This document shows, piece by piece, positions 480-30,232 of a stretch of 64,000 bases of DNA (the first letter of the stretch is position 1; every line of letters starts with the position of its first letter). The stretch comes from a phage: the sequence record PX104378.1; one strand, written 5' to 3'. A program made the translations under genes and the position numbers. The notes under the pieces are model-generated. The model did not search any database, had not been told where the DNA came from, and saw nothing but the letters and a program-made list of their open reading frames with translations.

Positions 480-2531
480 TTACATTTTAAATTTATCTGG
501 CATTGCGTCTACAGATACCAGATCAGCGATAAGCTGACGTAGAGTTGCCTTATCTGCTTTCTTACGTTCGGTTTTAGCTTCGGTAATAAAGCTGGAGAAA
601 GACAGGTCAGAAGCAGGTTTAACAACACCTTCACGGATGAATGCATCACCGTCCGCGATCATCTCGCCAGATTCTTGTAATGCTGCCAGTTCATTTTTGT
701 TCATAATATGTGCCTCAATGTAATAAGTTTCTTGTGAATCCGTCGATGCCGTAGCACGAGTTACCGTATCAAAGGATAACACAACACCGCGAGGAAGTAA
801 AATCTCGCATTCTTTGTAAGCAAATGCTTTGTTACCTACTGGCAATACGGGGATGTTTTCCGCGCCAGCAATGGAGAAAGCAACATTAGCGCCACCTTCA
901 CCGCGAGATCCAGCCATAGAATCTACACCAGCAACGGCACTAGCCACGTTTGCATTCCAGCCGCCAAAAATGTTAGGTGCAAGGGAAGTGCTCACATAGT
1001 TTTTAAAGTAAAACGCTTTTTGCTTACGTGCAGTTTCCCACATTTGCGACCGGAAGTCCATACCACGATACAGAATAGTACCAGGATCAAGTTTAACGCC
1101 ATAGTTGGAGAAGGCATTATCCAGTGCATCGCACATCTTGACCAATTCTTCTGGATCTGCGATGCCTTCAAACTCTTCCAGCTTACGGTCGGTTAGGAAG
1201 TTGTTCATATTGATGTATGCTGCATCGGCATATTCGCTCAACACAAAACCTTCCGCGCCCGGCAGATCAAGATCAATATCTGCCATCATTTCACCCATGT
1301 TGCTAGCAATTGCTTCAAACATACCGGAAGCAACATTACGTAGGGCATCGGTTTTAATCTGTGTGATGTGACTACGCAGCATTTCAGCTTTTACATCTGC
1401 TGGCATAGACTGGTCTACTCGATCCATTGCCAGGGCGGTGATCTTGTTTTCGAATACTTCCTCGCTCATGATTTCTTTTAAGCGTTTGATTGATGCTGCG
1501 ATAACTTCCGCAGACAACGGATCATATTGATCCTGAACTTTTACCAGTTCGCTTACTGCATATTTTGCATCGGCTTCGCTTTCAAAAATAGTACGCATGA
1601 AACCATAGCGAGTGATAATATCACTTGTCCAGTCATTCAGAGAACGAGCGGTTGAACGTTCTAAGGCTTGACGATCAATCAGAGTATTAAACTGTTTCTT
1701 AGGTTCGGCTTCGGTGATATCTTCTTCTGGTTTAAGATTAATTTTTTCTGGATGATTCACGTAGTCGCTGTTATATGTCGCTTGAGTTTTCAGCATTTCT
1801 TCTTTAGTCAAACGAGATTTAGCCGCTACGCGTTGTTCCGCTTCCGCGTTTCGTTCTTCTTCTGACACAAGACTAGCCGCATACGCCTCATCTTTAGTCA
1901 GAGATTCACCAGTAGCCTTAGATACCCAGCGATCACCTAAATCACTTTCTACTTTAGTGAACAAGGATTCATCAAGTTTAATCCCTTTAATCTTATCAAT
2001 CGCCATCCCGCGACGCTTGACAACAACTAAAGCGATCTTTTTGCTGGTCATTACTTCCTGCTGGAATACTTCAAACTTCGGTGTACGACGCACCAAACGC
2101 TCTATAACGCGCTTAACCAGTTCGGTCTTACCTTTCATGCGGGATACGTTAAAACGGAACATAACAGCGTCTAATTGCGCTTTACGGGCTGTTTCCATAA
2201 CCACATCAAAAGCACTTGCCATAACTGCAATCGGGTTATCGCCTAGACCATTTTTAAGCTGTACAATACGACCGCTTTTGTTCATTTCGCACAGTACAAC
2301 ATGTGCGGTCTTGTCACCCATACGAATGATTTTAGGTGTTTTGTTGGTGAAGTTACAAAGACGGACAATCACATCTTTATCGCGTGTCTGTACTGCAAAA
2401 AGCTGTTTAGGATTCTGCTTAGGCTTTAAGCACTGTACCGGAGCAATACTGCCAAAGTTTTCTTCCTCTTCCGTCAACAGCCATTTCTCGAAAGATTCAA
2501 TCATTAGATCGTCGATTTCTAAGTTAAACAT
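480..2531 (-). CDS. alt: Alt-like ADP-ribosyltransferase (virion protein)
   Basis: 683 aa (T4 Alt 682 aa); C-terminal R-S-ExE ART signature (YRGMD, STS, ECEILLPRG); GAGGA SD. Confidence 0.85.
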   Translation of the reverse strand: MFNLEIDDLMIESFEKWLLTEEEENFGSIAPVQCLKPKQNPKQLFAVQTRDKDVIVRLCNFTNKTPKIIRMGDKTAHVVLCEMNKSGRIVQLKNGLGDNPIAVMASAFDVVMETARKAQLDAVMFRFNVSRMKGKTELVKRVIERLVRRTPKFEVFQQEVMTSKKIALVVVKRRGMAIDKIKGIKLDESLFTKVESDLGDRWVSKATGESLTKDEAYAASLVSEEERNAEAEQRVAAKSRLTKEEMLKTQATYNSDYVNHPEKINLKPEEDITEAEPKKQFNTLIDRQALERSTARSLNDWTSDIITRYGFMRTIFESEADAKYAVSELVKVQDQYDPLSAEVIAASIKRLKEIMSEEVFENKITALAMDRVDQSMPADVKAEMLRSHITQIKTDALRNVASGMFEAIASNMGEMMADIDLDLPGAEGFVLSEYADAAYINMNNFLTDRKLEEFEGIADPEELVKMCDALDNAFSNYGVKLDPGTILYRGMDFRSQMWETARKQKAFYFKNYVSTSLAPNIFGGWNANVASAVAGVDSMAGSRGEGGANVAFSIAGAENIPVLPVGNKAFAYKECEILLPRGVVLSFDTVTRATASTDSQETYYIEAHIMNKNELAALQESGEMIADGDAFIREGVVKPASDLSFSSFITEAKTERKKADKATLRQLIADLVSVDAMPDKFKM

Positions 2532-2882: not shown

Positions 2883-3401
2883 TTAGTTATTTTTTAATTG
2901 CTCATCTTGCAATAAAGCAATCACATGCTGGCGATGTTCTTCCGATTGAGGCACACCGAAAAAGTTTGTTTTGTAGAAATACTCTAATCGGTCTTCTCGT
3001 GTGCTCTCTTCCATCATGATCGCGGGTAGTCCGAGATTTCGGAAACGTCGCTTTTCTGCTGGCGTAAAATCGCTGTAATACAGCATAGAATCATCATTAC
3101 CAGCAATGCTAAACTCATCCTTCATGAAGGAGAATATTGCGTTTAAACGCTGTTTACCGTCCACTATTTCGATTTCATAGCGAGAGCCATCATCAATCTT
3201 AGCCATTGCGATAGCACCAACCGGAAAATCATTAATCAGGTTTTCGATAAACATACGTTTGTTTTCGGTGTCCCATACCAAAGGACGCTGATAATCTGGG
3301 TTCATGTTGATATAGCCATCTTCTAACCACGCCTCATAAACAGAGATGACAAAGTTTTTAGTATTGGTATAGTAACGGCGTTTAGGAGTTAAACGGTTCA
3401 T
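2883..3401 (-). CDS. standalone DUF262 / ParB-like domain protein
   Basis: 172 aa; YQRPLVW and IVDGKQRLNAIF match the DUF262 QR..VW and DGQQR motifs; no DUF1524/HNH partner domain. Confidence 0.6.
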   Translation of the reverse strand: MNRLTPKRRYYTNTKNFVISVYEAWLEDGYINMNPDYQRPLVWDTENKRMFIENLINDFPVGAIAMAKIDDGSRYEIEIVDGKQRLNAIFSFMKDEFSIAGNDDSMLYYSDFTPAEKRRFRNLGLPAIMMEESTREDRLEYFYKTNFFGVPQSEEHRQHVIALLQDEQLKNN

Positions 3402-20545: not shown

Positions 20546-22789
20546 TTACAGCTTGCAAGATGAACATTCGCTAGCGTCTTCCGTACCATCAGCACCATCA
20601 CGCACGTTAGCGTAATACAGTGTCTTGAGGCCGTAATATTGAGCAAACAACATATCATCTAATACATCAGCAATATCGACTTTACCAGTCTTATAAGTGC
20701 TTGGATCGTAGGATGTATTGGAACTAATCGCCTGATCTACAAACTTCTGCATGATCGCTGCCAGTGTCAGATAAGGCTTGTTACCTTTCTTGATCAGTGT
20801 CCAAAGCAGGTCAATAACATCAGCATTATTCTCTACGTTCGGAATAACCTGATTAAATTGCCCTTCTTTCGATCCTTTAACCGATACAATCCCGCGAGGC
20901 GGTTCAATACCGTTTGTACTGTTAGACACCTGAGAAGACGACTCACAAGGCATCAGCGCCGAAAGCGTACTGTTACGAATGCCATATTTTTTCAGGTCTT
21001 CGCGCAGTTCTTCCCAATCCATCTCATACACCGGGTCAACCAGTTCATCTACTGTCTTTTTGTACCAGTCGATAGGCAGTTCACCGCGTCCATAACGTGT
21101 TTCGTGTATCAGTTCGCAAGCACCTTTCTCTTTAGCCAGTTGCACACTAGCCTTAATCAGAGCATATTGCAAGCGTTCAAACGTTTTATGCGTAAACTCG
21201 TTAGCGTCTTCATATGTGAAGAAATTATCCGCCAGATATGATGCAAAGTTAGTCACACCAACACCCAGAGAGCGACGTTTTTTGGCTGTCAGAGCTTGTT
21301 CTACAGGATAATCCTGATAATCTAACAGGTTGTCAAGTGCACGCACCATAACCATAGCGATCCGCTCTACTTCTTCCATATTTTCGATATCGAAATTACC
21401 TAAAACATATGCTGCCAAAGTACATAGGCTGATCTCTGAATCATCACGACCCATCGGTTTTGTCGGCAGAGCAATTTCACAACACAGGTTAGATTGTTTA
21501 ATCGGTGCTACATTACGAATAAACGCCCCGTGATTGTTCATGTTGTCTGTGAACGCTGGATAGATTCGACCAGTGTTAAAACGTTCAATTGCCACCGCTA
21601 AAAACAGGTCTTCGGCTTTAACACGAGTTTTACGAACACTCGGATCTTTTTCCAGTTTTTCGTAAAGCTGGCGGAAACCTTCCTCATCTCGGAAGTACAG
21701 ATCCCACAACAAGCCACCCGCAACATCTGGACTAAACAGAGTAATGTAATCCCGTTTAAGGAATCGCTCTACCATCAGGTTATTAATCTGTACGCCGTAG
21801 TCAAGATGGCGAATGCGGTTATCTTCCACGCCCTTATTGTTCTTTAACACAATCAGACTTTCAAACTCTAAATGCCACATTGGGTAATAGAGTGTCGCTG
21901 CCCCGCCACGAATACCGCCTTGTGAGCATGACTTAACGGCAGTCTGAAAATGTTTCCAGAATGGGATAACGCCAGTATGACGAACTTCACCATGCCCGAT
22001 CTTAGATCCTTCCGCGCGAATCATACCAGCATTGATACCGATGCCAGCACGCTTGCTAATATACTTGATGATTGCATTTGCGGTTTCATTAATACCCTGC
22101 AATGAATCATCAGATTCGATCACCACACACGAACTAAATTGTCGTGTTGGAGTACGCACACCAGCCATAATCGGAGTAGGCAGAGAGATTTGCTTATTCG
22201 CAACAGCATTATAAAAATCAATCACATGTTCAAGTCGATTTTCTGTCTCTTCTTGATGCAAGCACATACCGATCAGCATATACGCAAATTGCGGTGTTTC
22301 GATGATTTTCTTAGTGCTGCGATCCTGAACAAGATACTTCTCTTTTAACTGCATTGCACCCGCATAGGTCATTTTAAAATCAAGTTTATGGTCGATGAAT
22401 TTCTCCAGATATTCCACTTCTTCACGGGAATATTTTTGCAGAATTTCGCGATCATATTTTCCGGTTGCAATATTACGCTCAATATGGCTATAAAAATCAA
22501 TAGGTTGGAATTGACCGTATACTGATTTACGAAGTGCGAACATTGCAAGGTTACTTGCTACATATTGATAATCAGGTGTTTCTACAGTAATGTTATCTGC
22601 GGCGACCTTAATCAATACTTTCTGGATATCATTGGTAGACATACCTTCTGTCAGAAGTGGTTCAACCATATCAAACAATTCATATGGATCAACGTTATGA
22701 CCTTCGGCTGCCGCTTCCAGAATTTTCATTACTTTTTCTTTTTCAAACGGAACAGTCAGACCGGAAGACTTAACAACATTTTTAATCAT
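20546..22789 (-). CDS. nrdA: ribonucleotide reductase alpha subunit
   Basis: 747 aa (T4 NrdA about 754); N-terminal ATP-cone; C-terminal Cys pair in SECSSCKL. Confidence 0.9.
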   Translation of the reverse strand: MIKNVVKSSGLTVPFEKEKVMKILEAAAEGHNVDPYELFDMVEPLLTEGMSTNDIQKVLIKVAADNITVETPDYQYVASNLAMFALRKSVYGQFQPIDFYSHIERNIATGKYDREILQKYSREEVEYLEKFIDHKLDFKMTYAGAMQLKEKYLVQDRSTKKIIETPQFAYMLIGMCLHQEETENRLEHVIDFYNAVANKQISLPTPIMAGVRTPTRQFSSCVVIESDDSLQGINETANAIIKYISKRAGIGINAGMIRAEGSKIGHGEVRHTGVIPFWKHFQTAVKSCSQGGIRGGAATLYYPMWHLEFESLIVLKNNKGVEDNRIRHLDYGVQINNLMVERFLKRDYITLFSPDVAGGLLWDLYFRDEEGFRQLYEKLEKDPSVRKTRVKAEDLFLAVAIERFNTGRIYPAFTDNMNNHGAFIRNVAPIKQSNLCCEIALPTKPMGRDDSEISLCTLAAYVLGNFDIENMEEVERIAMVMVRALDNLLDYQDYPVEQALTAKKRRSLGVGVTNFASYLADNFFTYEDANEFTHKTFERLQYALIKASVQLAKEKGACELIHETRYGRGELPIDWYKKTVDELVDPVYEMDWEELREDLKKYGIRNSTLSALMPCESSSQVSNSTNGIEPPRGIVSVKGSKEGQFNQVIPNVENNADVIDLLWTLIKKGNKPYLTLAAIMQKFVDQAISSNTSYDPSTYKTGKVDIADVLDDMLFAQYYGLKTLYYANVRDGADGTEDASECSSCKL

Positions 22790-22859
22790 ATTACCTCACT
22801 TCATATTTTAGCAGGAACAAGTTTATCCTCCATATTGGGGGGCTTTCGCCCCCTTTTGT

Positions 22860-24092
22860 TTATACTGCCATTTGAGCGGTGATTGCTGGATGGCTTTGAT
22901 AGTTGTGAATTTTAAAGTCTTTCGGAGTCTTTGTCAATACCTCATCTAAAGATTTAAATTCCGGCAACTCAATTGTTGGTTTATCAAACGGAACACGGCT
23001 TAACTGTTCAATAACTTGATCAAAATGGTTTTTGTAAATGTGAGTATCTCCACCAGAGAAAATCAGTTCTCCTACCTCAAGATCACACATTTTCGCTATG
23101 ATGTGAGTTAACAGCGCATAGCTGGCAACATTAAAGGGCAAGCCCAAAAAGCTGTCTACGCTTCGCTGAAACCACATACAAGACAGTTTACCTTCATTGA
23201 CATAGAATTGCACGAACGGATGACATACACCTAATACAGCATTATGTGTTCCTTGTACGTTCCATGAGTCAATAATGATCCGGCGATCCGTTGGATTGTT
23301 TTTAATTTGTTCAATCACGTTTTGTAATTGGTCTTCCCAAATCTTCGGGCGATAGACATATTCTTCATCGTCTTTAGTGCTCGATGTGTCTACGTCCATA
23401 CTAGCAAAAATCGTGGTATCTGGTGCTAAAATATCCCCACCCAGATAATCACTATCAAGTAGATAACCGAAATAACCATCATCTACCCATTCCTGGAATC
23501 CCCACAAGCAATATGCATCATTAACAAAATTAGATTGAGTCTTCCAGTGGTCTGCTACTAAGAATAGATTATATTCAGAATCAAACTCTTCATAACGCAT
23601 ACCACGCCAGATAGCACATAAACGGTCTTCTGTGTCGTTGGTTGGCGTAAAGTCTTCTACCCACGGGTGTTTAAATGTATGTGTATATTTGCTCTTAACG
23701 CGCTTAATTTTGATTTCACCGTGTGGGTGAATCGGTTTGCGTCGCCACGCCATACCATACATATTGCCGACATTATAACCATTGAATCGCAAAGGATTCT
23801 TTTCTTTCATATCAAGACAGTTGCCGCGCCAAATGTCGAAGGCTTCTTCGTCAAACTTACCGCGTGTAATTTCCTGTAAGCGACGGCGGTCAAGTGATCC
23901 CTCCATAAACCATATCAACTCGCCAATTACAGAGGCTGTAGCCATCTTTTTAGTGGTCAGTAAGGGGAAACCCTTTCTTAAATCAATTCGCATCTCTGCG
24001 CCGAATTTAGAGAGCGTACCTACCCCCGTGCGGTCTTCACGAGGCCAGCCATTATCAAGAACATCACGCAACAGTTTCAAATATTCTTTCAT
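22860..24092 (-). CDS. td: thymidylate synthase with large internal insertion
   Basis: 410 aa; TS motifs DRTGVGT, TTKK, DRRIIIDSWN, VCHPFVQFYV, GLPFNVASYALL; about 115 extra residues between the YG.AWRR and QLQNVIEQIK blocks. Confidence 0.8.
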   Translation of the reverse strand: MKEYLKLLRDVLDNGWPREDRTGVGTLSKFGAEMRIDLRKGFPLLTTKKMATASVIGELIWFMEGSLDRRRLQEITRGKFDEEAFDIWRGNCLDMKEKNPLRFNGYNVGNMYGMAWRRKPIHPHGEIKIKRVKSKYTHTFKHPWVEDFTPTNDTEDRLCAIWRGMRYEEFDSEYNLFLVADHWKTQSNFVNDAYCLWGFQEWVDDGYFGYLLDSDYLGGDILAPDTTIFASMDVDTSSTKDDEEYVYRPKIWEDQLQNVIEQIKNNPTDRRIIIDSWNVQGTHNAVLGVCHPFVQFYVNEGKLSCMWFQRSVDSFLGLPFNVASYALLTHIIAKMCDLEVGELIFSGGDTHIYKNHFDQVIEQLSRVPFDKPTIELPEFKSLDEVLTKTPKDFKIHNYQSHPAITAQMAV

Positions 24093-24333
24093 CCCACATC
24101 ACCTTTTTCTTATTGATTGCTTTCTTACGCAGTTTTGCGACTGTCTCGTCAATATCGATAAAGACAACGCCAGGATCGAATACAGTAACAGGTCTTGAAA
24201 TGTCGCTATTTTCCTGTACTGGAAGCCATGACGCTTTAGCTTCATCATAGAGATATTGTAACCCGTAATAATCTACGGCTACTGCGTAGTTTTCACTGGT
24301 AGCTGACCATAATTGAATAATGGTTATTTTCAT
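24064..24333 (-). CDS. hypothetical protein (89 aa)
   Basis: ORF overlapping td start by 29 nt; start taken at MKITIIQ. Confidence 0.4.
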   Translation of the reverse strand: MKITIIQLWSATSENYAVAVDYYGLQYLYDEAKASWLPVQENSDISRPVTVFDPGVVFIDIDETVAKLRKKAINKKKVMWDERIFETVA

Positions 24334-24425
24334 TATTGTTCCCGTCCACAATGTAAACACCGACTACCAGCAAACATCAAAGATTCACCACAATGTTTGC
24401 ACTCATAATCTGTCAGAATTTTCAT
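24333..24425 (-). CDS. tiny zinc-ribbon peptide (30 aa)
   Basis: MKILTDYECKHCGESLMFAGSRCLHCGREQ (two CxxC pairs); 1-nt overlaps with both neighbours; speculative. Confidence 0.3.
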   Translation of the reverse strand: MKILTDYECKHCGESLMFAGSRCLHCGREQ

Positions 24426-24426
24426 G

Positions 24427-24996
24427 TTACGCCTTCTTACGTTCCAAAATTTGCTCACTGATCAGGTAATTATCAAGGAAGTAATTATGTTCTTCTTTGG
24501 TTACAAAGTCAAAATATAATTCCTGAATCATTTCCTTAGAGATACCAACATCATATTCAAATGGATCGTTGATTCCTGAACGTTGAACATACGTTAACAC
24601 AATACGGTCCGAAAAGTCAACCGCTTTTTCAATCAGGGAAGGTCCACCGATAACACTTACCAAACCTTGCGTTTTCTCCAGGACTTTTAACAGATCCTTT
24701 AATTCAATTCCAGTATACACATCTGGTTGGTCGCCGTTTTTGGCTTTCGGTGTCGGCTTGCTGGCATCGGTACTAATAACCACATTCACACGACCTTCCA
24801 GTGCTTTAGGAAGACTTTCAAAGGTATTACGTCCCATTACAACCGCCGCAAGACCAACATCTCCCATAGTGCGCATTTTAAAGTTTTCCATATCTTTTTT
24901 GATTGGACGACCCCACGGTAAACCGCCTTTAAAACCAAACGCCCAATTTTCATCTGACATTTTAGTGTCACCAATCGCAAATACACATTGAATCAT
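24427..24996 (-). CDS. frd: dihydrofolate reductase
   Basis: 189 aa; GGLPWGRPIKKDMENFK, VVMGRNTFESLP, VIGGPSLIEKA (DHFR motifs). Confidence 0.85.
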   Translation of the reverse strand: MIQCVFAIGDTKMSDENWAFGFKGGLPWGRPIKKDMENFKMRTMGDVGLAAVVMGRNTFESLPKALEGRVNVVISTDASKPTPKAKNGDQPDVYTGIELKDLLKVLEKTQGLVSVIGGPSLIEKAVDFSDRIVLTYVQRSGINDPFEYDVGISKEMIQELYFDFVTKEEHNYFLDNYLISEQILERKKA

Positions 24997-25009
24997 AATA
25001 TATCTCCTA

Positions 25010-25339
25010 TCAGATCATTTTAAAGTAGTTTTCGTTAACGTTTTCTTCATTAATTTCTGATTTAAACACTGTGCCATCATCAGGACAGACATAATATCGT
25101 TCTGAATAGTCACGATACTTTTTCAGTAGGCTGACACCAACGTTAACACCATTTTCCCAGAAACGAAAGATAATTTTATCGGCAGTGTAACGATAATCAC
25201 TTTGAATCAGGCTACCATCACCGCGACGAGACTCATAAATTGTAATACAATTGCGGTTGGCTGTATTAAGACATTCCTCAATAGTACCACAAGACAGAAT
25301 TTCGATTGATCCGTTAACTTCTTGTTCTACAGTCCACAT
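25010..25339 (-). CDS. hypothetical protein (109 aa)
   Basis: ORF with GAGGA SD. Confidence 0.5.
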   Translation of the reverse strand: MWTVEQEVNGSIEILSCGTIEECLNTANRNCITIYESRRGDGSLIQSDYRYTADKIIFRFWENGVNVGVSLLKKYRDYSERYYVCPDDGTVFKSEINEENVNENYFKMI

Positions 25340-25361
25340 AATGTAATCCTCACTTTGTATT

Positions 25362-25691
25362 TCACTGTTTTTTGCTCATATTATATGCTTCTAGTGACAG
25401 GTCGTCAACCATCGAAGAAATCTCATTAAGAAAATCTTTTTCCATATATGCCATCAAAGAGTTTGATTCTTTGATATGTTGTATAGCAGTCTCACTTAGA
25501 ACTCCTTCCCCTAAAAATAATGCAACAAGAACACTATCTGGGATATGAATCTCATCATAATCATCGATTCCTTTCTGTACTCGAATAGTGGCTTTTGTTG
25601 TGTTGTGTGTCATGTCTAATTTTGAGAAAAGTTCTACGTTCGGATACTTGTTACTTTTCTTATGCAGTGTCGCGTTCAATAACATAGGCAA
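25362..25691 (-). CDS. hypothetical protein (109 aa)
   Basis: ORF with GGAGGAA SD behind promoter cassette. Confidence 0.5.
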   Translation of the reverse strand: MPMLLNATLHKKSNKYPNVELFSKLDMTHNTTKATIRVQKGIDDYDEIHIPDSVLVALFLGEGVLSETAIQHIKESNSLMAYMEKDFLNEISSMVDDLSLEAYNMSKKQ

Positions 25692-25715
25692 GTTCCTCCA
25701 TTGTTTCGATGTTTG

Positions 25716-25743
25716 TATTATACAATACTATGTTACTTTGTCA
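25716..25743 (-). promoter_or_regulatory. sigma70-type early promoter cassette
   Basis: TTGACA-N16-TATAAT on minus strand. Confidence 0.5.
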
Positions 25744-26362
25744 ACTCTTTTTCAAAAGATTTTACGATATACATGATAGTGCTCAATTCGGACGGTGCTA
25801 CTGTTTCTGTGTAGCCATCCGGCATATCTTTTTTTGAGATATAGGAAGTTTTACCTTTCATCGCTTCCTTGATCTTGTTCTCTAATTCTAAGATCTTTTG
25901 ACCGTCTTGTAAAGTCAATTCATAAAAGATCTCATGGTCGAATTTAGAAACACGAGATTGGTCTTTCATTCGTGCTTTAGTTGTTAAGTTAGTTATTCCA
26001 AATTTAACACCAACAAAATTATTATTGTTGATTAGTCTCTGGATATACAGAGTTCCAATTTTTAATGTATTGTATCCATAGTGGGCACATTTAGGGCAAC
26101 GTCTTCCTTTCTGAAACTCCATTATTGGTTGAGTGTATGTATGCCCTTCGCTACATGTCAAATTTAATTTTGTCTTATTACCTTTCCATTCTCCAATGAA
26201 TCCATTGAAGGTTATATTTTCTTTTTCAAAGACTGGTTTCAATCTTTCATAATATTCAATTGGCGATATAGAACGATTGCTTTTTCTTACCCATTCAATC
26301 TCATGTGCTTGACGTACTAACATAATTTTATCCTCCGTTGTTTCGATGAGTTCATTATACAT
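25733..26362 (-). CDS. Zn-finger protein, possibly nuclease-like (209 aa)
   Basis: CSEGH ... CPKCAH Cys/His cluster, then LYIQRL ... GVKFGIT block loosely resembling GIY-YIG. Confidence 0.45.
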   Translation of the reverse strand: MYNELIETTEDKIMLVRQAHEIEWVRKSNRSISPIEYYERLKPVFEKENITFNGFIGEWKGNKTKLNLTCSEGHTYTQPIMEFQKGRRCPKCAHYGYNTLKIGTLYIQRLINNNNFVGVKFGITNLTTKARMKDQSRVSKFDHEIFYELTLQDGQKILELENKIKEAMKGKTSYISKKDMPDGYTETVAPSELSTIMYIVKSFEKELTK

Positions 26363-26382
26363 TACCTCGCCAACATGTCAAC
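26355..26382 (-). promoter_or_regulatory. sigma70-type early promoter cassette
   Basis: TTGACA-N16-TATAAT on minus strand. Confidence 0.5.
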
Positions 26383-26405
26383 ACCTTTTTCATAAATTTT
26401 TAGGC

Positions 26406-26433
26406 AATAAAAAAGCCTCCCCGAAGGGAGGCT
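26406..26433 (-). terminator. rho-independent terminator after gene 32
   Basis: GCCTCCC-CGAA-GGGAGGC hairpin followed on minus strand by UUUUUUAUUG. Confidence 0.7.
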
Positions 26434-26443
26434 GTAAAATTCA

Positions 26444-27391
26444 TTACATCGCTAACAGAGAGTCCAGGTCATCCAGATCAGAAGCGGAGGAAGTACCGCC
26501 ACCCAGGTCCAGAGATGCCATCAGATCATCAGCGGAAGAATCGGATGTTGTGCTAGTTGCGGTAGTACCAGCGTCGAATGCATTCATCTGTGCATCGAAA
26601 TCGTCAAGCTGGTTGTTAATCGCTGCCGCAGCACCAGAAGCCGCAGCACCAGCTACCAGGCTTACACCTTTAACTTTCTTAAATTTAGCATCCAGTTCCT
26701 CGAAAGATTTAAACTGGTCTTTTGCTACGATAACATCAATATCTACCATGTTTTCGAACAGATATTTCTGGAATGCTTCATCTTCGATGTTCGGAATCGC
26801 TGATTGCTGCATGAAACGTGAATCATCGTAGTTCAGGAATTTATCTACTTTCTTAGCTTTCAGAAGGAAGTTAGCGCCTTCGAACGGACATACGATGTTT
26901 ACAGGTTTTTCGCCCAATTCCGTGTTTACGTTGCTCATTGCCAGAATCTTATCATAAATTTTCTTACCGAAGCGGTATTTAAATACTTTACCTTCGTTTT
27001 CCGGCGCTTTCGGATCTTTCATTACCAGAATGTTTGCGAAGTAAGAAGATTTACGCTTAACATCTTGATATTCTTTATTGTTGGTGTTGTACAGATCATT
27101 TTCGCTAATGTATTTGCACACAGGGCAAGAATCAAAATCACCGTGGGTGCTAGGGCAGTTTTCCCAATAATACTTACCATTTACTTTGAAAGAATGGTTT
27201 ACAAGGTTGATGATCGGTAAACCGTCTTCGGTGCGTGCTGGAAGAAAACGAATCACCGCTTCACCGTTACCCGCCGCGTCAGTTTTAATCTTCCACTCTT
27301 TCGGATCTTCTTTGGAGAAGCCGTTGCTACCTTTCAGTGCTGCCAGTTGAGCTTGCAGTTTGGAAGAATCTTGACGACGAAAAATGTTCAT
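26444..27391 (-). CDS. 32: ssDNA-binding protein gp32
   Basis: [35 protein letters not shown] and acidic C-terminal tail match recalled T4 gp32; start at MNIF with AGAGG SD. Confidence 0.9.
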
Positions 27392-27433
27392 AATTATACC
27401 TCTTTTATACATTAACTATTAATTTGCTAGACT

Positions 27434-27461
27434 ATTATACAGATTTAAATTTACTTGTCAA
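27434..27461 (-). promoter_or_regulatory. sigma70-type promoter upstream of gene 32
   Basis: TTGACA-N16-TATAAT overlapping the 3' end of gene 59. Confidence 0.5.
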
Positions 27462-28138
27462 CTATTTGTTTCGGCTTTTAATTGAGATATTTCTTTACAC
27501 TCTTTAACTACTTTAACAAATAATGCTCTTGCTTTTGCGGCGTCAATAACAAGTAGTTTCTTGTACGCCTTCATTTTAACACTATAAGTTTGCCAAATCA
27601 AGTCTTTGGCTACCTTGTCGTGTTCGTCGATTATATTTAGAAAGCTATCTAACAACATAAACGACTCAAACGATATAATCCGATTTTGCAGTAGTTTAAA
27701 GATACCGCTAGTTTCGGTTGCGGGATTGTATGTAATTAGCTCTTTAAGAGTAACCCCGCGTTTCTCTGAGAAGTATACCAGACTTTTAATGTCATCGTCA
27801 AATCGTGTTGCAGCATCAGTGATCTTACCGATATACTCCATGTAAAATCCGTATGCGTCAACATCGGTGATTTCACCTACCCATGCATCGGTATTAGCTA
27901 CCAGATTGCTTAGGAATAGGAAGTATAATTCTCTTAGATTGTACTTTTCCGCTAATTTTGCGAAATAATACTTATCTCTGCGTTTATTGAATGCGGCATC
28001 AGACAACCGCATCCTCCAATTGTATTTTACGCAATCATAACGCCCGTTCATATGAGCTTTCATCATGCAATATAACATATACACAGATTTAGCATTAATT
28101 CGCATATCTGGATCTGGAGGAAGACGGTTTCTGATCAT
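27458..28138 (-). CDS. 59: helicase loader gp59
   Basis: 226 aa; KSVYMLYCMMKAHMNGRYDCVKYNW, FLSNLVANTDAWVG, SFESFMLLDSFLNIIDEHD match recalled T4 gp59. Confidence 0.85.
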   Translation of the reverse strand: MIRNRLPPDPDMRINAKSVYMLYCMMKAHMNGRYDCVKYNWRMRLSDAAFNKRRDKYYFAKLAEKYNLRELYFLFLSNLVANTDAWVGEITDVDAYGFYMEYIGKITDAATRFDDDIKSLVYFSEKRGVTLKELITYNPATETSGIFKLLQNRIISFESFMLLDSFLNIIDEHDKVAKDLIWQTYSVKMKAYKKLLVIDAAKARALFVKVVKECKEISQLKAETNS

Positions 28139-28147
28139 ACATACCCC

Positions 28148-28417
28148 TTAAATATCGAGAGTGTTGGTCGGTTCGTCGATCACTCCCTTCCTGAGCGTTC
28201 TATTCACTATACATTCTTGTGTGATCTTGTCAATAATGGACACCGGAATATACTTCTGATAGTGACCATATTCTATAGAGTTTTCCTCTACAAACTGAGT
28301 TGTCGCTTCAAGATAAGTCAATCCCTCTTCAACAACCAGTTTTTCGATTGCAAGACCGTTTGCTGTTTTATTCGCGGCTTTTACCGCATGTTCATTAAGC
28401 ATTGAACACCCGATCAT
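28148..28417 (-). CDS. 33: late transcription co-activator gp33
   Basis: YLEATTQFVEENSI and C-terminal PTNTLDI match recalled T4 gp33; N-terminus shorter than T4. Confidence 0.65.
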   Translation of the reverse strand: MIGCSMLNEHAVKAANKTANGLAIEKLVVEEGLTYLEATTQFVEENSIEYGHYQKYIPVSIIDKITQECIVNRTLRKGVIDEPTNTLDI

Positions 28418-28670
28418 AGAGTTCTACCGCTTCATCGCGTTCTGCTTCGAAGGTTTCTCGCTGTTGCTGGTGATACAGTTTAAACAGAATGCCCCACATT
28501 TTACCATCTACGCCTAATTCTTCTTTAGCACGCTGTTTGATCTCTTTGATCTTATCGCCATATGCTTCTTGAATGGTTTTCTGATCGCTGGCTTCTTTAA
28601 TCAGTTGTGCCAGGGTATTTCCGTGCACTGCTTCGTCAAATACTACTTTTTCTTTTTTCTGTTCAGTCAT
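28395..28670 (-). CDS. dsbA: dsDNA-binding protein DsbA-like
   Basis: 91 aa, position between 33 and rnh, helical charged protein; assignment mainly by synteny. Confidence 0.55.
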   Translation of the reverse strand: MTEQKKEKVVFDEAVHGNTLAQLIKEASDQKTIQEAYGDKIKEIKQRAKEELGVDGKMWGILFKLYHQQQRETFEAERDEAVELYDRVFNA

Positions 28671-28674
28671 AATA

Positions 28675-29274
28675 TTAACCCTCTTTAGTCATTAATTGAA
28701 AACCACGTTCAGCTTTTGAGATTTCGCTAGGACTTAAATCGTCACCCACATATTCTAGCATCATTTCTCGGATAATGTCAAGTGCTTTTTCATCACCTGA
28801 TTTTAACTCGAACTCAAGTTCATAATGAGCAGTGTCGCCCAATCCTTCGCCTACTTTGCCATAATAGAAAGTGTCTTTGCACATTTCCACTATACCGCAA
28901 CCCATATCTAGAGTCAATGACTTGCGATATGTCATTACTTGCATTATTGTAGTGATATAGTCGGAGTTTACCCCTAGACTATCAATAAAATGGACGAACT
29001 CATCCCAATTTGAAAATGTCATTTCCTCGCGGTTGAATAGTCCAGATTCATTATCACCCATTTTGACCATGATCTCTGATTTTCGACAGTCAAGTCGTGC
29101 ATAAATTCCTTTTTGACGTAGCGCATGATCTTCGGTATCATAATAAAATTCGTGTTTTAGAATGTTATCACGGTCTACGAGATTGTACCCGTCATACATT
29201 GCTACCCACAAATCACAGATGGTTTCGACGCCAATTTGTGAGTGTGCATAGTATTTTAATTCAAGTTCTTTCAT
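28675..29274 (-). CDS. CYTH-domain (triphosphate tunnel metalloenzyme) protein
   Basis: 199 aa; N-terminal ELELKYY (CYTH EIExK-type motif) and later YELEFELK acidic strand. Confidence 0.5.
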   Translation of the reverse strand: MKELELKYYAHSQIGVETICDLWVAMYDGYNLVDRDNILKHEFYYDTEDHALRQKGIYARLDCRKSEIMVKMGDNESGLFNREEMTFSNWDEFVHFIDSLGVNSDYITTIMQVMTYRKSLTLDMGCGIVEMCKDTFYYGKVGEGLGDTAHYELEFELKSGDEKALDIIREMMLEYVGDDLSPSEISKAERGFQLMTKEG

Positions 29275-29284
29275 GTGTCAACCC

Positions 29285-30232
29285 TTAGAACTCACCAATT
29301 TTCTGCAACATTTTAACTAACGCATTTGTTACAAAATAGTTATAAATTTTACCGCGTGGTGCTGGTTTAGATTTTTCCCATGACTCCAGAATCTGATTCT
29401 GAATATTGTCTGGGATGTAATCGAAATCAATAAGTTCGCGGTTTTCATCAAATCGACGTGCTTCTTCCTCTGTCATCAAAGACTTTGGATCTTCGGCATC
29501 GAAGATTTGCTCTAACCATTTGGTCGCAACTGGTTTAGCTCGTTCACCTTCCAATCGAGAGATAATAAAATCACTACGGCACTTGACAGAAGCTACACCG
29601 TCTTTTGCGTCACCCTTAACACATTTTACCATAAGGTCTTTGTACGGGCTACCGTATTTGCATTTCTTCCATGCTTTTTGTACTGGTGCCCACTGCTTCA
29701 CATTTTTGTATTTGTGCAACTGTGTGTAGTCACCATCGCCGGAGTTGATCAGCACCTGACGACCTTCTACAGAAAACTTTTTAGTTAGCACAGCGATTAT
29801 ATCATCCGCTTCAACTTTGTCAACCTTAATAACGTGATAAGGCATGTTCTCTTTAAACTCTTCGGTGATCTTATTGATCGCAGCAAAGATCATCTCCCAA
29901 TCACGCGGATCTGCGTCTCGTTTTTCCTTACGGTTGCGTTTATAGTAAGGGGCGATATCACGTCGCCAGTAACCTTTGCTTGAATCAAAAGCAAGTACCG
30001 TAATAGGGTATTGCTCTTTGAATTTTGTCATATTATAACGCATGGTGTCAAGAATAAGATGACGGATCATGCCTTCACTAATAGGATCTTCCGGTTTAAA
30101 GGTATGCGAGATAGTAGCAATCATAAGCTGCGACATATCAATCAAATGCACACCTTCCGGTAGTTTATCTTCTGGGTCATCGAAGAAATCATTAAGTGTA
30201 GCGGTAGTTTTTGTAAACGGGTTATACGTCAT
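29285..30232 (-). CDS. rnh: RNase H (5'-3' exonuclease / flap endonuclease)
   Basis: 315 aa; GYWRRD, YYKRNR, VEADDIIAVL, NSGDGDYTQLHKY.NVKQW, IDFDYIPDNI match recalled T4 RNase H. Confidence 0.9.
   Translation of the reverse strand: MTYNPFTKTTATLNDFFDDPEDKLPEGVHLIDMSQLMIATISHTFKPEDPISEGMIRHLILDTMRYNMTKFKEQYPITVLAFDSSKGYWRRDIAPYYKRNRKEKRDADPRDWEMIFAAINKITEEFKENMPYHVIKVDKVEADDIIAVLTKKFSVEGRQVLINSGDGDYTQLHKYKNVKQWAPVQKAWKKCKYGSPYKDLMVKCVKGDAKDGVASVKCRSDFIISRLEGERAKPVATKWLEQIFDAEDPKSLMTEEEARRFDENRELIDFDYIPDNIQNQILESWEKSKPAPRGKIYNYFVTNALVKMLQKIGEF

Follow-up and report, generated by a model that had tools for sequence, protein, structure and literature searches.

A putative CapR zinc-finger endonuclease gene between gene 32 and frd in a T4-like phage

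What kind of gene occupies the slot between gene 32 and frd in a T4-like phage is the question raised by sequence record PX104378.1, from a coliphage of the RB49 type, of which one stretch of 64,000 nucleotides (the window) was analysed. The original prediction, made from the letters alone, described the open reading frame (ORF) in this slot as encoding a zinc-finger protein with a possible degenerate GIY-YIG-like block, either a degenerate homing endonuclease or a DNA-binding regulator. Sequence comparison and structure prediction make it probable that the gene is an active free-standing homing endonuclease gene (HEG) of the known CapR-zinc-finger/T5orf172-like class, and it is an ordinary, neatly organised example of a class known in other phages. 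Current concepts are left unchanged and a known class is extended, while a 'hypothetical protein' in a well-known T4-like slot becomes a testable nuclease with named residues, that is, R118, E148 and the zinc ligands.

Gene model and zinc finger

The ORF exists as the original prediction had it. It is 209 aa long, is encoded on the minus strand and has gene 32 (26444..27412; Pfam gp32, E=1.9e-50) on one side and, on the other, frd (24427..24996; Pfam DHFR_1). Judged from its similarities it is far beyond chance, its product matching PHROG 681 'endonuclease' at E=1.9e-52 and its best homologs at E-values down to 8.5e-141. The start codon, however, probably lies 13 codons downstream of the ATG chosen by the ORF finder, at ATG 26323. 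The upstream ATG at 26362 falls in aTGTATAAT, which is the -10 box of a sigma-70 promoter (26381..26354) matching the consensus at 12/12 positions; inspection of the sequence revealed a ribosome-binding site (RBS), GGAGG at 26336..26332, 8 nt upstream of ATG 26323; MLVRQAHEIEW, the N-terminus read from there, begins nearly all full-length close homologs; and the gene callers give 196 aa in related contigs. Given the RBS spacing, the homolog starts, the gene calls and the position of ATG 26362 inside a -10 box, the real product is most likely 196 aa long, and the 209-aa model was discarded. Residues below are numbered in the 196-aa protein unless stated otherwise, and the features of the locus are collected in Table 1.

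Table 1. Features of the endonuclease locus, in coordinates of the window
Feature	Position	Strand	Remarks
ORF, longest model	25733..26362	minus	209 aa; ORF of the original prediction
Endonuclease CDS, probable true	25733..26323	minus	196 aa plus stop; MLVRQAHEIEW start
5' extension of longest model, 13 codons	26324..26362	minus	Probably untranslated; contains RBS, overlaps -10 box
CapR-homology zinc finger	26084..26230	minus	aa 32-80 of 196-aa protein; Pfam PF21817
T5orf172/MUG113-like (GIY-YIG superfamily) nuclease domain, predicted	25736..26077	minus	aa 83-196; invariant columns, hhalign, Pfam matches of homologs, AF2
Conserved 3' end, ~200 nt	25733..25933	minus	Most 30-nt windows 93-100% identical across RB49-type alleles
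Consensus sigma-70 early-type promoter, TTGACA-16-TATAAT	26354..26381	minus	12/12 match; directly upstream of endonuclease gene
Gene 32 terminator stem-loop plus T run	26404..26433	minus	Terminator scan
Second consensus promoter, TTGACA-16-TATAAT	25717..25744	minus	12/12 match; serves next gene
70-nt direct repeat, upstream copy	26331..26400		Repeat search
70-nt direct repeat, downstream copy	25694..25763		AT-rich region, promoter, leader, RBS

By its sequence, the 196-aa protein is composed of a short conserved leader, one CapR zinc finger and a predicted C-terminal nuclease domain of the GIY-YIG superfamily. The motifs on which the original prediction was based are all present in the 209-aa translation (CSEGH at aa 70-74, CPKCAH at aa 89-94, LYIQRL at aa 105-110 and GVKFGIT at aa 118-124), and its metal-binding C...H...CxxC cluster proved to be a CapR finger, with PF21817 scoring 38.1 bits (cutoff 24.2; E=about 1.7e-9 to 1.9e-9; aa 45-93 of the 209-aa ORF). 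The zinc ligands are C57-x3-H61 and C76-x2-C79, and the two pairs show the expected spacing of ~15-26 residues. Conservation was counted over the 145 representative proteins that matched the C-terminal domain best (E<=8e-19 in every case). C57 is kept in 140/145 of them, C76 in 137/145 and C79 in 129/145, and ~101/145 have a His at either position 60 or position 61. In the window protein the first pair is Cys/His, in contrast to the CxxC reported for PLE CapR (PMC8096241). The related Pfam model DUF4379 stayed below its cutoff on the window protein (19.2 against 24.5). The single finger is CapR treble-clef-like and a predicted DNA-recognition module. The CapR finger binds DNA in dependence on its cysteines, and zinc-dependent sequence-specific DNA binding has been demonstrated only for PLE CapR (PMC8096241). 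Further searches with the protein gave no NCBIfam family and no sequence match among PDB chains, and no paralogs of the endonuclease were found within the 64-kb window.

The predicted C-terminal nuclease domain

Several lines of evidence suggest that the C-terminal domain belongs, as a divergent member, to the T5orf172/MUG113 branch of the GIY-YIG superfamily. A profile search with the domain retrieved 2195 representative proteins at E<=1e-3, and among the 145 best homologs Pfam (E<=0.01) recognised MUG113 in 57/145, T5orf172 in 30/145 and GIY-YIG in 4/145; the tuntematon homolog gave sub-threshold T5orf172 and MUG113 matches at the equivalent position. Alignment of the family profile by hhalign to the T5orf172 domain of ICP1 Odn gave a probability of 81% (E=1.2e-5, 92 columns) and to ICP1 ORF121 one of 78%, and hmmsearch against the Pfam-defined T5orf172 regions of Odn and ORF121 gave E=6e-6 and 9e-6, respectively, in a four-sequence search. 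The window protein and its isolated domain did not match PF10544, PF13455 or PF01541 even at E<=10, and the isolated domain returned only noise from Pfam (AAA_12, Baculo_VP91_N and others), far under the cutoffs. Because the domain has diverged beyond detection by the Pfam T5orf172 and MUG113 models, Pfam-based censuses would miss it. The 145-homolog profile, searched against the PDB, retrieved zinc-ribbon proteins (DUF4379/mS66) alone, with no nuclease among them.

The key residues of the domain are Y93, K107-F108-G109, R118, Q122, E148 and G170-Y-T-E173-T, with K107, G109, R118, E148, G170 and E173 invariant in 145/145 homologs. The resemblance of LYIQ...KFGIT to the GIY and YIG strands, noticed in the original prediction, was borne out. 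Y93 in G-T-L-Y-I takes the place of the 'GIY'-strand Tyr on predicted strand beta1 (144/145), and F108-G109 appears to take the 'YIG' position on predicted strand beta2 (Phe in 106/145, Tyr in 24/145, Gly in 145/145), where Odn, as a T5orf172 member, has K-V-G. R118 follows beta2 at canonical spacing, and then E148 and E173. The distance of 10 from F108 to R118 is the same as that from Y17 to R27 in I-TevI, R118 being at the position of the helix-1 catalytic Arg, and in both hmmsearch and hhalign E148 aligns with the catalytic Glu of Odn, E180 (the I-TevI equivalent is E75). Odn is a T5orf172 nuclease that cuts DNA, and the E180A exchange abolishes cutting (PMC8263062).

The His/Tyr expected four residues past the catalytic Arg is absent, with Q122 in its stead (Gln in 108/145, His in 26/145), and the second Tyr is replaced by Phe. 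Together with the retention of one finger only, these losses could be explained by a domesticated DNA-binding repressor that no longer cuts, resembling I-TevI at its own operator or PLE CapR, a repressor that itself originated from HEGs of this kind (PMC8096241). This explanation is very improbable, however. Odn, whose homologous catalytic domain has an Arg corresponding to R118, likewise lacks the helix-1 His/Tyr and is active (PMC8263062), and R118, E148 and E173 are kept in all of the homologs with a dN/dS of 0.05-0.35 across the nuclease domain. Thus, of the two options in the original prediction, the homing endonuclease is favoured, and a pure DNA-binding regulator is less likely because of the invariant catalytic residues and the purifying selection.

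The fold predicted for the domain points in the same direction. The AF2 domain model (pLDDT 94.9) shows the order beta-beta-alpha-beta-alpha-alpha (E10-19, E22-31, H35-45, E49-58, H61-74 and H97-115), in which the GIY-YIG core order beta-beta-alpha-beta-alpha with a three-stranded sheet is present. Foldseek against the PDB gave E-values of at least 0.7, which are not significant, but the only matches with TMq >0.4 were GIY-YIG nucleases, namely Slx1 (6sei, 0.58 and 0.56; 7cq2/7cq4, 0.44) and HIGLE (7wme; 0.48, rmsd 3.2 over 78 columns). Some of the structural matches in BFVD bear the names GIY-YIG, homing endonuclease and T5 Orf172, and a two-domain model returned nothing meaningful from the PDB by Foldseek. 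The structure prediction called for in the original prediction therefore yielded no confident assignment to a non-nuclease fold.

The endonuclease gene is under purifying selection. Compared with three alleles of the same length, dN/dS is 0.17-0.23, and no frameshifts or premature stops were found in the gene. A dN/dS of ~0.2 indicates that it is not decaying, and the word 'degenerate' in the original prediction, which holds for a divergent T5orf172/MUG113-like subfamily, does not hold in the sense of decay, since the catalytic residues are invariant and selection is purifying.

The slot, its repeats and its alleles

The endonuclease gene is intergenic among conserved genes and shares its minus-strand orientation with gene 32 and the frd cluster. 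Two small ORFs, 25362..25691 (ORF B) and 25010..25339, lie between it and frd. Upstream, the gene 32 terminator (AGCCTCCC-TTCG-GGGAGGCT and a T run) and the consensus promoter form a typical PeSL-type cassette, as defined in PMC2839356. Downstream, the -35 box of the second consensus promoter sits in the last codons of the endonuclease gene, E-L-T-K, and the GEC-3S record has a promoter/-35 signal annotated at this position. Two direct repeats of 70 nt (71% identity, 637 nt spacing) bracket the gene, and each contains one of the 12/12 promoters.

As the original prediction had supposed, the slot varies. The gene was found in 28/59 RB49-type records, with about half lacking it at the slot, and ECD7 is without it, though its gene-32 side is 97.4% identical to that of the window; the match to G2248 falls short by the same ~600 bp. 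On the shared flank, ECD7 is essentially identical to the window as far as the promoter spacer. Comparison of the window with HEG-less ECD7 for a target-site or immunity polymorphism gave no candidate site; since the flank stays nearly identical as far as the insertion point, a target is not marked there by any evident immunity polymorphism, which speaks against homing. The flanks are mosaic, with their partner switching at the endonuclease gene, which thus forms the boundary of differently related flanks.

These patterns could also have arisen if the gene spread and was lost mainly through recombination between the flanking promoter/PeSL repeats, as cassette excision and insertion in which the nuclease is uninvolved. 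In RB49 and phi1, PeSL-type repeats mediate gain and loss of genes without a nuclease (PMC2839356), and for this reason the presence/absence pattern alone is no proof of homing. The repeat copies with their promoters on both sides of the gene and the PeSL character of the upstream copy with the gene 32 terminator fit this explanation, as do the single repeat/promoter copy of ECD7, which resembles a hybrid of the two in the window, and the variable presence of ORF B, whose 3' end likewise contains a promoter. It would, however, leave unexplained both the purifying selection on a nuclease with invariant catalytic residues and the occurrence of the protein family at many unrelated loci and in unrelated phage lineages, with homologs in T5, ICP1, jumbo phages and Vibrio/Aeromonas phages. 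Repeat recombination is unlikely as the main explanation, and it is in any case compatible with homing.

The alleles in the slot encode proteins of 196, 338, 392, 485 and 542 aa with one to six CapR units, of which the window allele has one. In the Delraymugoa allele, 213-nt tandem repeats correspond to the zinc-finger units, and alleles differ by their gain and loss. The window protein can be aligned to the 542-aa allele over the leader, the last unit and the nuclease, and 3-6 CapR units are present in its relatives from this slot. The gene might accordingly be taken for a non-functional remnant in decay, left when in-frame repeat deletion shortened a multi-finger endonuclease of the Delraymugoa/RB49 type. 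Such a remnant is scarcely credible in view of three other single-finger 196-aa alleles with ~80% identity, intact frames and the low dN/dS given above, the unbroken frame of the window gene itself and its confidently folded predicted structure. The single-finger allele represents this architecture in a minimal natural form and could help to find the fewest finger units needed for target recognition. One finger, where relatives have 2-6, may nevertheless be too unspecific for classical homing.

Variation among alleles is unevenly distributed. The 3' ~200 nt match 24 records at >=93.7% identity, always at one place per record, and have a dS of 0.11-0.25, whereas upstream dS is 0.8-2.6 and the 5' parts of RB49-type alleles are saturated or unalignable. 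A hypervariable, putatively DNA-binding part thus stands beside a constant catalytic end.

Proposed homing, rival readings and known systems

For the favoured homing endonuclease, the following course can be proposed. In a mixed infection, the predicted endonuclease would bind a specific sequence in a gene-less genome (e.g., of the ECD7 type), possibly in or near gene 32 or its downstream region, and cut nearby. Recombinational repair off the gene-carrying genome would then copy the gene and co-convert flanking markers, which would yield the presence/absence pattern and the mosaic flanks, and the promoter embedded in the end of the gene would penalise its precise loss. Genes combining CapR and T5orf172 domains have been treated as HEGs located at exchange boundaries (PMC10448857), and HEGs of T4 are more readily retained when they carry embedded promoters (PMC2988022). 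With its embedded promoter and the promoter repeats on both sides, the window gene would be a clear example of a HEG that spares the host genome and is hard to delete.

By its sequence context, the gene appears positioned to be expressed from an early promoter, unlike T4 HEGs such as the Seg genes, which are expressed from middle or late promoters and not early (PMC2988022); this position speaks against homing. It would better suit an early-expressed weapon that cuts competing phages, satellites or plasmids, or that causes marker exclusion. Odn, a T5orf172 nuclease repurposed against PLE (PMC8263062), is a precedent, and a hypervariable DNA-binding part with a constant catalytic end fits an arms race over targets. 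Nevertheless, RB49-type phages have no known satellite or competitor target, homing itself yields slot polymorphism and mosaic flanks, and the two overlap, since HEG cleavage produces marker exclusion as a side effect; a weapon of this kind is distinctly unlikely. In a broader reading, which is tentative and on balance doubtful, the place beside gene 32 would be a modular locus. The constant catalytic end and a 12-codon leader would serve as homology arms, between which arrays of one to six fingers and the first half of the nuclease are swapped in a target-specificity arms race, and the product would be an early-expressed weapon against phages and mobile elements and not only a selfish homing gene. 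If this were true, HEG censuses would have overlooked a Pfam-invisible T5orf172-like branch in T4-like phages.

Among characterised enzymes, the T4 Seg proteins and I-TevI share with the putative homing endonuclease the GIY-YIG superfamily and genes that are free-standing, intergenic, oriented like their neighbours and carry embedded promoters of downstream genes (PMC2988022). SegG is encoded next to gene 32, and its cleavage target is the T2 version of that gene (PMC2988022). The gene 32 neighbourhood is a target region. The SegG gene of T4 is located between 59 and 32, upstream of gene 32, whereas the slot of the window gene is downstream; in a metagenomic relative the 59-32 slot is taken by an HNH gene. 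Seg proteins and I-TevI have an N-terminal nuclease and other DNA-binding modules, whereas the window protein has its predicted nuclease at the C-terminus. The window protein showed no similarity to T4 SegG by BLASTP (E=3.2), and hhalign of the profile against the single sequences of I-TevI and SegG gave probabilities <1%; identity as a seg gene was therefore rejected. Odn (Gp88) differs from the window protein in its DNA-binding domain, which is RepA_N-type (DUF6945 in Pfam) instead of a CapR finger, and in its role, which is origin-directed anti-satellite defence and not homing (PMC8263062).

The PeSL cassettes of RB49 and phi1 likewise have a stem-loop terminator, an AT-rich region and a sigma-70 promoter upstream, with a related promoter copy downstream, and were described around ORFans and not a nuclease gene (PMC2839356). 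The downstream copy in the window differs from them, having no stem-loop and overlapping the coding end.

The closest counterparts are the ICP1 proteins Gp121, Gp130, Gp165 and Gp174 and the putative HEGs of T5-like and Aeromonas phages, which also have N-terminal CapR repeats and a C-terminal T5orf172-like nuclease (PMC8096241, PMC10448857). As in the window family, their repeat number varies by recombination, and like the window gene they are variably present and located at exchange boundaries. The window protein differs from the ICP1-class HEGs in that its nuclease domain is undetected by Pfam (T5orf172, MUG113), in having one finger only, and in its host, a T4-like phage (Straboviridae, Krischvirus-type); a 2023 survey stated T5orf172 genes to be absent only for T4 itself (PMC10448857). 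CapR/T5orf172-type HEGs of the kind found in ICP1 and T5-like phages thus appear to be common beside gene 32 in RB49-type coliphages, where their nuclease domain would escape surveys that rely on Pfam. The RB49 ortholog in the same slot, RB49p240 (RB49ORF239c), is 485 aa long, and T5.141 of T5, which is annotated as similar to RB49ORF239C, is 250 aa long with two CapR units and has the C-terminal domain in common; in both, finger number and the sequence over the 5' two-thirds differ from those of the window gene. In 2006 RB49ORF239c had a weak DUF723 match only (PMC1524935), and its RefSeq name is now 'endonuclease'. The record of ICP1 ORF130 also notes similarity to RB49p240.

A probable endonuclease gene between gene 32 and frd

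The 209-aa ORF of the original prediction was confirmed, and all the motifs quoted for it (CSEGH, residues 70-74; CPKCAH, 89-94; LYIQRL, 105-110; GVKFGIT, 118-124) were found in its translation. Its predicted location between gene 32 (Pfam gp32, E=1.9e-50) and frd (DHFR_1) also held; beyond the endonuclease gene the order is two 109-aa ORFs, frd and then td. The phage is a Krischvirus-type (RB49/phi1/ECD7-like) T4-like coliphage, and about 60 records of this type match the 8-kb stretch around the gene at 90-96% identity, none of them being identical. Because the first ATG falls within a promoter -10 box, a downstream methionine (MLVRQAHEIEW) is the start in nearly all full-length close homologs, and gene callers gave 196 aa on two related contigs, the 196-aa numbering is used below. 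No paralog of the gene was found within the window. Between td and the endonuclease gene lie two small conserved ORFs that match PHROG 16012 and PHROG 16287 (E about 4e-59 for each) and seem to be part of the RB49-type backbone. The 410-aa td product has two separate matches to Pfam Thymidylat_synt, with residues 254-410 aligned to profile positions 110-266 in the second, which implies that roughly 130 aa are inserted midway along thymidylate synthase; a 1233-nt td is likewise annotated in RB49, ECD7 and Delraymugoa.

Table. Features at and around the endonuclease gene in PX104378.1
Feature	Coordinates	Strand	Details
td	22860..24092	-	
PHROG 16012 ORF	24064..24360	-	
frd	24427..24996		
PHROG 16287 ORF	25010..25339	-	
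ORF B	25362..25691	-	109 aa, next gene downstream of the endonuclease gene
Promoter in ORF B 3' end	25408..25380		TTGACG-17-TATAAT, near-consensus
70-nt direct repeat, two copies	25694-25763 and 26331-26400		bracketing the gene; 71% identity, 637 nt apart
Endonuclease ORF, 209 aa	25733..26362	-	ATG 26362
Endonuclease, 196-aa model	25733..26323	-	ATG 26323, GGAGG 8 nt upstream
Sigma-70 promoter	26381..26354	coding strand of endonuclease gene	TTGACA-16-TATAAT, consensus 12/12; between gene 32 hairpin and endonuclease gene
Terminator hairpin	26433..26414	coding strand of endonuclease gene	after gene 32 stop
Gene 32	26444..27412		

Zinc finger and putative nuclease domain

The metal-binding cluster that had been proposed proved to be a CapR homology domain (residues 32-80), scoring 38 bits against a curated Pfam threshold of 24.2, with ligand columns conserved among 145 homologs (C57 in 140, H60/61 in about 101, C76 in 137 and C79 in 129). 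CapR is a repressor from the Vibrio cholerae satellite PLE that requires four cysteines for DNA binding, and its ancestry has been placed in ICP1, whose putative T5orf172 homing endonucleases have DNA-binding domains from which it derives (PMC8096241).

Residues 83-196 matched no Pfam nuclease model, either isolated or within the whole protein, and no NCBIfam model or PDB sequence. Five independent lines, however, assign them to the GIY-YIG superfamily, T5orf172/MUG113 branch: homolog census, profile alignment, catalytic residues, predicted fold and structure search. (i) A profile search of 1.84 billion proteins recovered 2195 representative proteins at E<=1e-3, the best 145 of which carried the finger domains CapR (100), DUF4379 (77) and DUF723 (36) and matched, at E<=0.01, the nuclease models MUG113 (57), T5orf172 (30) and GIY-YIG (4). 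(ii) The family profile aligns exactly at the Pfam-defined T5orf172 regions of the ICP1 nuclease Odn (Gp88; hhalign probability 81%, 92 columns) and ICP1 ORF121 (78%), pairing E148 with Odn E180, whose replacement by alanine abolished cleavage both in vitro and in vivo (PMC8263062). (iii) K107, G109, R118, E148, G170 and E173 are kept in all 145 homologs and Y93 in 144, while position 108 (F here, Tyr in 24) and position 122 (Q here, His in 26) vary; the F108-R118 spacing equals that of Y17-R27 in I-TevI. (iv) Structure prediction, suggested as a check, was confident (AlphaFold pLDDT 89.3 for the whole protein; 94.9 and pTM 0.86 for this domain alone), with the element order beta-beta-alpha-beta-alpha-alpha. 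(v) Foldseek E-values against the PDB were non-significant, and query-normalised TM exceeded 0.4 only for GIY-YIG nucleases (Slx1, 0.58, 0.56 and 0.44; At-HIGLE, 0.48, rmsd 3.2 Å, 78 columns). Predicted viral structures gave 104 hits at E<=1e-3, the top 50 all being phage proteins, whose named members are CapR-homology, zinc-ribbon, GIY-YIG, homing endonuclease or T5 Orf172 proteins. On these lines, LYIQ is indeed the counterpart of the GIY strand and KFGIT that of the YIG strand; the likeness suspected earlier therefore stands, but the block belongs to a subfamily that has diverged, not decayed.

Overall dN/dS among single-finger alleles is 0.17-0.23, indicating that selection maintains the short form as a protein. 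Both a decaying remnant and a regulator that binds without cutting are disfavoured, because the active-site residues are invariant and dN/dS is low.

Transitive homology makes the protein a member of the putative CapR/T5orf172 homing endonucleases known from ICP1, the T5-like phages and others, and its way of working would resemble theirs (PMC8096241, PMC10448857). The two-finger T5.141 of phage T5 has the C-terminal domain in common with it and carries an annotation of similarity to RB49ORF239C, and the record of ICP1 ORF130 notes similarity to RB49p240. Membership in the T4 Seg/I-TevI group was rejected, since similarity is undetectable and the domain order is reversed. T4 SegG lies between 59 and 32, on the opposite side of gene 32. 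The metagenomic contig SRR10874028_19257 (L012) has an HNH_3 endonuclease gene (1250..1846) between gp59 and gp32 as well as a 196-aa allele, and thus nuclease genes on both sides of gene 32.

Length alleles and a mosaic boundary

The match to PHROG 681 ('endonuclease', E=1.9e-52) is confined to positions 365-541 of the 576-position profile, indicating that family members are usually longer. Alleles in the same slot have 196 aa (here and in three metagenomic alleles of about 80% identity), 338 aa (W115), 392 aa (G37-3), 485 aa (RB49p240) and 542 aa (Delraymugoa, six CapR stretches). Within the Delraymugoa gene, a 213-nt unit is tandemly repeated at 3177..3931 of L002 (3.5 copies with 70% matches) and coincides with CapR finger units, which suggests that length variants are made by repeat recombination; similar repeat-mediated expansion and contraction is known for ICP1 gp174 (PMC10448857). 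Relatives were found by tblastn in 318 phage records, including jumbo coliphages and Vibrio, Aeromonas, Salmonella and Klebsiella phages, frequently at several sites per genome. In 2006, RB49ORF239c had a weak DUF723 match and nothing more (PMC1524935). The gene extends a known class, its orthologs already being named 'endonuclease' in RefSeq (one record: 'putative GIY-YIG nuclease family protein'); its instructive features are a nuclease domain invisible to Pfam, a minimal allele with one finger, the early-promoter setting and a 3' end that stays constant beside hypervariable fingers.

The slot varies, as had been supposed. On the gene 32/59/rnh side no relative is closer than ECD7 (97.4% identity, against about 91% for RB49), yet ECD7 lacks the gene, its gene 32 terminator being followed by one promoter-leader and the ORF B homolog. 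G2248 matches the window in two pieces across the same shortened span, indicating the same gap, and 28 of the 59 records matching the neighbourhood contain the gene's conserved 3' end, once in each. On the frd/td side RB49 is closer (94.2%, against 91.5% for ECD7), so that, within 22000..30000, the window is mosaic precisely at the endonuclease gene. ORF B is common to the window and ECD7 and absent in RB49, W115, G37-3 and Delraymugoa; it matched nothing in Pfam or PHROG. When alleles are compared in 30-nt windows, most windows in the last ~200 nt of the gene show 93-100% identity, whereas the 5' two-thirds are 60-80% identical or unalignable. Synonymous sites diverge by 0.11-0.25 in the 3' third and by 0.8-2.6 upstream, a contrast that reflects different histories through recombination, with constraint not the sole cause.

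Promoter context and possible mode of spread

The best-supported reading of the observed domain composition, conserved catalytic residues, purifying selection, slot polymorphism, mosaic boundary and promoter arrangement is that the gene encodes a putatively active free-standing homing endonuclease, for which we infer cleavage, a target and biased inheritance. The finger would recognise a particular site in a relative lacking the gene, the GIY-YIG-type domain would cut nearby via R118 and E148, and repair off the carrier genome would copy the gene together with neighbouring markers. One main rival is that recombination between promoter repeats alone drives spread and loss of the gene. Each 70-nt repeat copy comprises an AT-rich stretch, a perfect TTGACA-16-TATAAT promoter, a leader and GGAGG, and the terminator-promoter unit upstream of the gene fits the PeSL cassettes of RB49/phi1, through which genes are gained and lost by recombination (PMC2839356). 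Another main rival is use of the protein as a weapon that is expressed early and aimed at competitors or satellites, comparable to Odn. In T4, no endonuclease gene is driven by an early promoter (PMC2988022), whereas the window gene lies in an early-promoter context.

The -35 box of the downstream repeat copy sits within the endonuclease E-L-T codons, and a promoter at the same point is annotated in GEC-3S. Free-standing endonuclease genes of T4 are known to have promoters inside their 3' ends, an arrangement thought to aid gene retention (PMC2988022). The 3' end of ORF B carries a near-consensus promoter in the same layout.
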